The notes: a model not told the origin generated them from the letters alone. A DNA stretch of 64,000 bases from Escherichia coli (GCF_003334385.1 NZ_QOWN01000004.1), one strand, 5' to 3'. Shown: positions 2,151 to 2,450, numbered from the stretch's first letter. Made by a program: numbers and translations.

Positions 2151-2226
2151 GCGGGAATAGCTCAGTTGGTAGAGCACGACCTTGCCAAGGTCGGGGTCGC
2201 GAGTTCGAGTCTCGTTTCCCGCTCCA
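2151..2226 (+). tRNA. glyV: tRNA-Gly (anticodon GCC), 76 nt with encoded CCA
   Basis: GCGGGAATAGCTCAGTTGGTAGAGCACGACCTTGCCAAGGTCGGGGTCGCGAGTTCGAGTCTCGTTTCCCGCTCCA; cloverleaf-compatible, anticodon loop CTTGCCAAG. Confidence 0.95.
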
Positions 2227-2262
2227 AAATTTGAAAAGTGCTGCAAAGCACAGACCACCCAA

Positions 2263-2338
2263 GCGGGAATAGCTCAGTTGGTAGAGCACGACCTTGCCAA
2301 GGTCGGGGTCGCGAGTTCGAGTCTCGTTTCCCGCTCCA
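2263..2338 (+). tRNA. glyX: tRNA-Gly (anticodon GCC), identical copy 2
   Basis: identical 76-nt sequence after a 36-nt spacer. Confidence 0.95.
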
Positions 2339-2374
2339 AAATTTGAAAAGTGCTGCAAAGCACAGACCACCCAA

Positions 2375-2450
2375 GCGGGAATAGCTCAGTTGGTAGAGCA
2401 CGACCTTGCCAAGGTCGGGGTCGCGAGTTCGAGTCTCGTTTCCCGCTCCA
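2375..2450 (+). tRNA. glyY: tRNA-Gly (anticodon GCC), identical copy 3
   Basis: identical 76-nt sequence after an identical 36-nt spacer. Confidence 0.95.

Follow-up and report, generated by a model that had tools for sequence, protein, structure and literature searches.

Perfect identity between neighbouring repeats can be read either as the outcome of recent exchange between the copies or as the mark of selection on every base. This question is raised at positions 2151 to 2450 of a stretch of Escherichia coli DNA 64,000 nucleotides in length (GCF_003334385.1, NZ_QOWN01000004.1; hereafter the window), where three tRNA genes are separated by two spacers that do not differ at a single position. 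The array is very probably the known E. coli glyV-glyX-glyY operon, recently homogenised by intra-array recombination and preceded by a promoter of the rRNA P1 type. The glyVXY operon, its RNase E processing and the neighbouring datA locus are already known, and in this respect the feature is ordinary, a textbook tRNA operon of little consequence for the interpretation of the genome. The window nevertheless catches a tandem tRNA array very soon after its homogenisation, and the comparison with 5,426 complete genomes provides a concrete picture of how frequently the units of such an array are lost, gained and converted.

Structure and identity of the array

As predicted by ARAGORN, three tRNA-Gly(GCC) genes are located on the + strand, glyV at 2151..2226, glyX at 2263..2338 and glyY at 2375..2450. 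Each is 76 nt in length, with the anticodon gcc at position 34 and an encoded 3' CCA (every gene terminates in ...CCGCTCCA), and each scores 69.1 bits against Rfam RF00005, for which the gathering score is 29. All three genes are identical by exact string match, and glyV is identical to its K-12 counterpart. Spacer 1 (2227..2262, +) is the same as spacer 1 of K-12, while spacer 2 (2339..2374, +) was found by string match and K-12 alignment to be an exact copy of spacer 1, both being AAATTTGAAAAGTGCTGCAAAGCACAGACCACCCAA, 36 nt. Tandem Repeats Finder described an array of period 112 from 2151 to 2452, with 2.7 copies, 100% matches and 0% indels. An exact repeat of 112 bp is expected ~0 times in shuffled sequences, and the repeat is far beyond chance. 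The initial annotation had proposed a tRNA-Gly(GCC) triplicated as exact 112-bp units with identical 36-nt spacers. This description is accurate to the base, since both programs predict all three copies and exact realignment reveals no differences between them, but the named operon and the datA locus directly downstream had gone unrecognised. A permissive Rfam scan of the window returned nothing besides tRNAs. A sub-threshold YrlA match in that scan was dismissed as the tRNA-like part only, and the ORFs spanning the array are mechanical.

Three parts can be distinguished in spacer 1. At the 5' side there is a single-stranded segment rich in A/U (AAAUUUGAAAA); a hairpin of 5 bp capped by a GCAA loop follows at 2238-2251, and the C/A-rich AGACCACCCAA then leads up to the next tRNA.

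The region of the window is matched in 5,426 of 5,426 complete E. coli genomes, in which it is annotated as orn, tRNA-Gly (x2 or x3) and queG. The order in K-12 MG1655 is glyV, glyX, glyY (b4163-b4165), the small ORF yjeV and the convergent queG. The same synteny is seen in the window. The orn gene, encoding an oligoribonuclease of 181 aa, lies upstream on the same strand (1395..1940, +; an ORF from ATG to TAA, annotated in E. coli records) and serves as a synteny anchor outside the operon, and queG, encoding epoxyqueuosine reductase, is the convergent downstream neighbour (2720..3859, - strand; ORF check and annotation). According to alignment and string comparison, the promoter, leader, three tRNA genes, spacer 1 and trailer are all identical to those of K-12. 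The only difference resides in spacer 2, which in the window is a copy of spacer 1 (36 nt, GCAA loop), making the array 1 bp longer. The K-12 pattern of a 36-nt spacer followed by a 35-nt spacer is therefore not matched by the two identical 36-nt spacers of the window; this is an allelic difference and no bar to membership of the glyVXY locus. Two private SNPs were also observed in the window, one at 2859 inside queG (A, with T in all eight comparator genomes) and one at 18235 (A, with C in four long comparator loci), which set the window apart from each of the nearest public complete genomes.

Promoter, transcript and downstream region

The promoter elements were found exactly where the initial annotation had placed them. 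The -35 hexamer TTGCAG (2066..2071, +), which appears as TTGC[AG]N in 18 genera, matches TTGACA at 3/6 positions. The -10 hexamer TATAAT (2088..2093, +) lies 16 bp past it within an invariant block and is followed by the GC-rich discriminator GCGCCTCCC (2094..2102, +), as read from the sequence, with the transcription start at ~2101. In all 18 genera, which belong to three families, the promoter block TTCTCGTATAATGCGC...CCCGT is unchanged, and the leader downstream of it diverges. Immediately upstream of the -35, an A/T-rich tract and a G6 run (TGAGATAAAAACGCAAAAAAAACTTTTTTGGGGGG; 2031..2065, +) form a candidate UP-element or activator region. Cross-genus alignment indicates that the A-tract and the G-run are kept across genera; the A/T-rich tract at 2031-2059 is partly conserved, and the UP consensus is not alignable.

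When the glyV promoter (TTGCAG-16-TATAAT-GCGCCTCC) is compared with K-12 rrnB P1 (TTGTCA-16-TATAAT-GCGCCACC), the two share the 16-bp spacer, the perfect TATAAT, the discriminator GCGCC(A/T)CC, an A/T-rich upstream region and the 11-mer TATAATGCGCC, for which ~0 occurrences are expected in shuffles. They differ in the -35, TTGTCA in rrnB P1 and TTGCAG in the glyV promoter, and the upstream region of glyV is not alignable to the rrnB UP element. The term stringent-type, given to this promoter at the outset, is thus justified at the sequence level by the 16-bp spacer, the perfect -10 and a discriminator like that of rrnB P1, in a block invariant in 18 genera. A literature search for a direct ppGpp/DksA test of the glyV promoter found none; control of the promoter by ppGpp/DksA may be supposed from its resemblance to rrnB P1. 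The promoter was not called by a generic sigma-70 consensus scan of the window, because its -35 matches TTGACA at only three of six positions. This miss is not taken as absence, given that the site is conserved and agrees with the published start of the transcript.

The full-length in vitro substrate of glyVXY, g386, starts with CCGTAACGAC and ends in ...CCACAGCGACGC (PMC9841416 supplement). These ends map to 2101 and 2484 of the window, so that the transcript would start 8 nt after TATAAT, and the transcript ends of the window agree with those in the published RNase E work. The 3' trailer extends over 2451..2484 (+), its end being that of the published in vitro transcript (PMC9841416).

A 5' leader of ~50 nt (2101..2150, +) precedes glyV, and the 5' leader of a tRNA precursor is removed by RNase P. 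Folding and cross-genus alignment point to a conserved stem-loop within it at 2102-2130 (-8.4 kcal/mol, z -2.8). The stem CGTAA..TTACG is retained from genus to genus, and K. oxytoca shows a compensatory change in it (CGUGA..UCACG). In the window, the stem-loop at 2102-2130 reads CGUAACG-ACGCAGAAAUGCG-AAAAUUACG. On the other side of the array, a terminator-like hairpin followed by UUUUUGUUG (2473..2509, +; -14.3 kcal/mol, z -1.9) is plausibly the intrinsic terminator of the operon; a strict consensus terminator scan did not call this trailer hairpin.

The DnaA-inactivating locus datA is located in the intergenic region between glyVXY and queG (PMC10380432). In the window, the datA region corresponds to a cluster of DnaA-box-like 9-mers at 2469..2718, assigned from their positions and the same source, with ATATCCACA at 2469, TTATCCACA at 2536 and TTATTCACA at 2698 on the + strand and TCATCCACA at 2710 on the - strand. 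As the 9-mer at 2469 falls within the proposed terminator hairpin, read-through could affect datA, an effect of tRNA operon read-through that has been speculated upon in a review (PMC10380432). The annotated 17-aa ORF yjeV (MRFYFYSQAVDESGVTR; 2684-2737) shares sequence with two datA DnaA boxes and with the 3' end of queG; regulatory DNA annotated as an ORF seems likelier here than a genuine gene.

Spacer alleles in E. coli

The two spacers of K-12, 36 nt (spacer 1) and 35 nt (spacer 2), show three differences: in spacer 2 the A-run is shorter by one A, the loop C is changed to T, and the closing pair is changed from A to G. In K-12 and most E. coli, spacer 2 is a 35-nt variant with a GUAA loop and a closing pair of U-G or U-A. 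The distribution of the alleles was examined by means of 30-nt probes covering all three diagnostic positions, which are allele-specific under the megablast requirement for an exact 28-mer. Among the 5,426 complete genomes, the spacer-1 probe was found at 4,628 places in 4,596 genomes, the GTAAG allele of spacer 2 in 3,170 genomes and the GTAAA allele in 2,049 genomes. A distinct spacer 2 is therefore present in ~96% of the genomes. From the 4,628 places in 4,596 genomes it follows that at most ~32 genomes carry spacer 1 twice; the spacer-2 probes occur twice in ~36 (GTAAG) and ~19 (GTAAA) genomes. These allele counts come from exact 28-mer probes and a systematic sample of 60 genomes and are not a full census of array structure. 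The spacer-1 30-mer is absent from 830 of the 5,426 genomes; these must include one or more additional spacer-1 alleles or array structures, a candidate being the GAAA-loop variant of one locus (L007).

Genomes resembling the window were listed with a 601-nt query anchored in the unique flanks. Exact one-piece matches of 601 bp were obtained in three genomes, J53-p1-pV-hybrid-1, STK78-E and mip270_04. Four further genomes match these 601 bp at 99.7%, and one of them, L725, was confirmed to carry spacer 1 in both positions (sp1/sp1). The perfectly periodic array of the window is thus a rare derived allele. Overall, ~3-4% of the 5,426 genomes have a non-standard arrangement and ~0.1% have the exact state of the window.

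Recency and recurrence of the homogenised state

The nearest neighbours of the window over 25 kb include two genomes with two copies (24,888 bp) and many with ordinary arrays (24,999 bp), and all of them round to 100.0% identity. SNPs in the flanks were counted outside the array over 22.3 kb by direct comparison with the window. The counts were 2 for N18-04097, whose array is ordinary, and 4 for 23CRST014, which has two copies, while the sp1/sp1 genomes STK78-E and mip270_04 differ by 7 and 14, respectively. It can be seen that the nearest flank haplotype carries an ordinary array. Therefore, the base-perfect repeat reflects recent intra-array recombination, not selection to the base, and homogenisation in the window lineage is very recent. 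Recent homogenisation had been one of two explanations offered at first for the identity of the spacers. It is borne out by the two different spacers of most E. coli and by the ordinary arrangement in the nearest relatives of the window.

The state is also recurrent. In L725, sp1/sp1 is found on a different trailer haplotype, one common to AST205. The J53 derivative, a laboratory strain, is the same as MG1655 over ~1.1 kb of flank on each side, and its parent J53 has the ordinary 600-bp arrangement. The sp1/sp1 state has accordingly arisen, or been produced by assembly, at least 3 times, on the K-12-like haplotype, on the L725 haplotype and in the J53 derivative.

Copy number of the array

Arrays of two copies that retain spacer 1 exist in at least 15 E. 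coli genomes. In the systematic sample (n=60), 40 genomes have three copies without an insertion, nearly all of them 600 bp, 17 have three copies with a 121-bp insertion in spacer 1, 2 have two copies, and 1 is an odd record. A synthetic four-copy query (sp1-sp2-sp2) gave an exact match in 1297KP and a match of 99.7% in ET979, both of which are annotated x4. The strong predominance of three copies suggests dosage selection. In the chromosome record NZ_CP135244.1 (OHT76-1), one isolated tRNA-Gly was the only match and the orn-glyVXY flanks did not contribute; the locus may be rearranged or reside on a different record of the assembly.

The array had initially been described as prone to recombinational change in copy number, with a comparison across strains proposed as the check. 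In that comparison, two, three (the norm) and four copies all occur in E. coli, as do two to four in other Enterobacterales, in agreement with the description. The tyrT-tyrV, valU-X-Y and leuQPV loci are tandem tRNA gene arrays that recombine, and glyVXY is like them in consisting of short direct repeats of identical tRNA genes. A flux of tRNA copy number by duplication is reported for Pseudomonas fluorescens SBW25 (PMC7661048, PMC10954465). The two systems are alike in that tRNA dosage tracks gene number and repeats of identical tRNA genes permit unequal exchange, from which copy-number variants and homogenised spacers result, whereas the duplications in SBW25 are large (kb to Mb) and those of glyVXY are single-unit changes of 112 bp.

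Concerted evolution of the spacers and their processing

With orn as an anchor, 80 species-level loci were collected, of which 50 have at least two tRNA-Gly(GCC) genes downstream of orn. Across these 50 species of Enterobacterales, most arrays have three copies, some have two, and Serratia silvae has four. The tRNA copies are identical within a genome in all but two cases. Among 21 genomes with two short spacers, the mean identity of the spacers within a genome is 0.913, compared with values between genomes of 0.688 (sp1-sp1), 0.712 (sp2-sp2) and 0.696 (sp1-sp2). Since first spacers of different genomes are no more alike than a first and a second spacer, positional orthology has been erased, and the spacers of tRNA-Gly arrays evolve in concert. 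The rrn operons and tufA/tufB are similar in that copies within a genome are more alike than orthologues (0.91 versus 0.70 for the glyVXY spacers). The signal in glyVXY differs by residing in non-coding spacers of 23-50 nt within one tandem array, and homogenisation is episodic here, with 1-5 spacer differences kept in most genomes. Adjacent spacers are exactly identical in only 2 of 50 pairs from other species (L081 and L086), which implies that exact identity marks a recent event everywhere. An additional ~0.9-1 kb of DNA was observed between orn and the array in Klebsiella, Raoultella, related genera and Salmonella enterica subsp. arizonae (L020, L024, L026, L030, L033 and L034, about 3044-4100), the corresponding gap in E. 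coli being ~210 bp.

While the spacers diverge between genera, certain features are retained. Of 107 spacers, 36 carry AAATTTGAAAG at the 5' end, most of the others having a close variant of it, and 48 carry CACCCAA at the 3' end. Most of the short spacers hold a small hairpin, and 36 distinct hairpins were found. The stems vary between genera yet still pair, as in GTGCT/AGCAC, GTATC/GATAC, GTGTC/GACAC, ATGTC/GACAT, TGGCT/AGCCA and GGCC/GGCC. Pairing falls to 57% when the arms are randomly dealt, from a value of 100% that is partly circular since the hairpins were selected, and folding energies are below those of shuffles (mean z -1.3; 36 of 55 spacers below -1). Weight is placed only on these contrasts, of arms with shuffled arms and of MFE with shuffles. 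With RNAalifold, no consensus structure emerged from 32 spacers aligned by MAFFT, since their stems are out of register and both the loop length and the 5' offset differ from spacer to spacer. In Klebsiella, Raoultella and Pluralibacter gergoviae, spacers of 23-27 nt lack the hairpin, which is thus favoured and not essential. Judged from these comparisons, selection acts on the spacer ends and structure and not on every base. Selection on processing sites, the other explanation initially offered for the conserved spacer, is accordingly upheld for the ends and the hairpin structure, but not as the cause of identity to the base.

The combination of concerted evolution, a covarying hairpin and conserved ends suggests processing signals. 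To our knowledge, such spacer signals have not been dissected experimentally. For the E. coli precursor, the major RNase E site is 1 nt downstream of glyY, and cleavage there requires a single-stranded glyX-glyY spacer (PMC4191395) as well as the neighbouring glyX tRNA (PMC9841416). It is conceivable, though we hold this only tentatively, that the small hairpin with the flanking AAAUUUGAAAG and CACCCAA constitutes a functional processing module of enterobacterial tRNA-Gly arrays. Such a module could position RNase E, for which groove recognition of structured RNA by the enzyme offers a comparison (PMC9841416), or it could prevent the spacer from pairing with the adjacent tRNA. In that case, the stem would be kept by compensatory evolution while concerted evolution spreads new stems through the array, which would make the array a compact natural system for the interplay of compensatory change and gene conversion.

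Origin of the identical spacers

According to the mechanism proposed here, one sigma-70 promoter of the rRNA P1 type, with a weak -35, would drive a transcript of ~385 nt that contains the three tRNA-Gly(GCC) units. RNase E cuts this precursor immediately 3' of every CCA, where the RNA is single-stranded and rich in A/U; RNase P generates the 5' ends, and exonucleases trim the 3' ends. Together with glyW elsewhere, the three copies supply the major glycine tRNA for GGC/GGU codons and thereby act as a gene-dosage device. Identities of 76 bp at a distance of only 36 bp would allow sister copies to misalign. Unequal exchange would then lead to the loss or gain of a unit of 111-112 bp, and non-reciprocal exchange or a template switch would lead to the copying of one spacer over the other. 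In the window lineage, the usual 35-nt spacer 2 would have been replaced by a copy of spacer 1, giving the base-perfect 112-bp repeat. The replacement is probably neutral; a functional effect is unlikely because stem, GNRA loop and A/U-rich segment all survive the change at the three positions.

Several other origins can be considered for the identical spacers. Selection for exact identity, with every one of the 36 bases mattering for processing, finds some encouragement in the conservation of the spacer ends and hairpin across genera and in the need of RNase E for an accessible glyX-glyY spacer in vitro (PMC4191395). It is, however, highly implausible, since spacer 2 differs from spacer 1 at 3 positions in ~96% of E. 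coli and spacer 1 tolerates a 121-bp insertion in ~30% of them. Across Enterobacterales, moreover, spacers range from 23 to 233 nt and lack the hairpin altogether in some genera, and adjacent spacers of other species match exactly in only 2 of 50 pairs. The state might also have been created during assembly or polishing, if multi-mapping reads overwrote the diagnostic positions of spacer 2 in an ordinary 36/35-nt array with those of spacer 1. Spacers that differ at only 3 positions inside a 112-bp repeat are a classic setting for mis-polishing, draft contigs often break in the array and end at the first tRNA, and the J53 derivative differs from its parent only at the array. Nevertheless, an artefact of this kind is improbable here, given that 7 complete assemblies, made independently in different laboratories and differing in haplotype, show the sp1/sp1-type arrangement, that the real two- and four-copy arrays (annotated x2 and x4) demonstrate that the array recombines, and that exact adjacent duplicates of a spacer are found in other species too (L081, L086).

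The third alternative shares recombination with the proposed mechanism and differs in the path. The array could have dropped to tRNA-sp1-tRNA by unequal exchange between glyX and glyY and then been re-duplicated, possibly under dosage selection. Re-duplication of a two-copy array yields exactly the structure of the window, no non-standard allele is more common than the two-copy array with spacer 1 (at least 15 genomes), and two such genomes share the 25-kb haplotype of the window almost exactly (4 SNPs). Two rare events would be needed, however. Moreover, expansions appear to be rarer than losses, with two verified four-copy arrays and 0 of 60 in the sample, and an ordinary array of three copies accompanies the closest haplotype found, 2 SNPs away. 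Loss and regain is therefore a real but lesser possibility, and a one-step conversion or template switch is regarded as somewhat the likelier path on account of that closest haplotype and of the rarity of expansions. The flank SNP counts of 2-14 are too low for a tree by which the recombination path could be traced.

Draft contigs ending at or inside the first tRNA-Gly were encountered at L008, L015, L023, L036, L037, L039, L053, L055, L056, L058, L068-L070 and L072. Because short-read assemblies break in the array, drafts are no reliable source for its copy number or for the identity of its spacers. This calls for caution with tandem tRNA arrays in general, in which both properties are sensitive to assembly and polishing.

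ERIC-like insertions within the array

In ~30% of the complete E. coli genomes (~1,600), an imperfect palindrome of 121 bp is located between the CACCCAA end of spacer 1 and glyX, at a site corresponding to 2262/2263 of the window (for example, at 6564-6684 in both L002 and L003). It folds as one long hairpin (z -3.6), and copies of ~75% identity are present elsewhere, such as between puuR and puuC. Canonical ERIC primer sequences were not found with up to 3 mismatches in the window or in L088, and the best primer-site matches of the insertion itself cover 15-18 of 22 positions. The insertion is thus best called an ERIC-like element, of the ERIC/IRU kind in a sense that does not imply rigorous family membership, and by its position it would be transcribed inside the tRNA precursor. 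A genomic island or integration event at the tRNA, considered for the class of genomes with 63% coverage, was rejected, as this class is accounted for by the 121-bp insertion in spacer 1. If the processing module proposed above is real, insertions at the junction of CACCCAA and the tRNA would be tolerated since they leave the module intact.

Related insertions were observed in other species, either full (~120 nt) or short (~50 nt), all of them ending in ...GAAAGACGAAGATTAA. Their position varies by species and may be spacer 1, spacer 2, both spacers, or the leader before the first tRNA. Either the 5' junction of the tRNA has been struck repeatedly by insertions, or the element has been shuffled among the spacers by recombination of the array. 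The loci with such insertions are L009, L010, L012-L016, L019, L020, L025, L028, L030 and L031, together with L038, L044, L047, L048, L057, L061 and L073.
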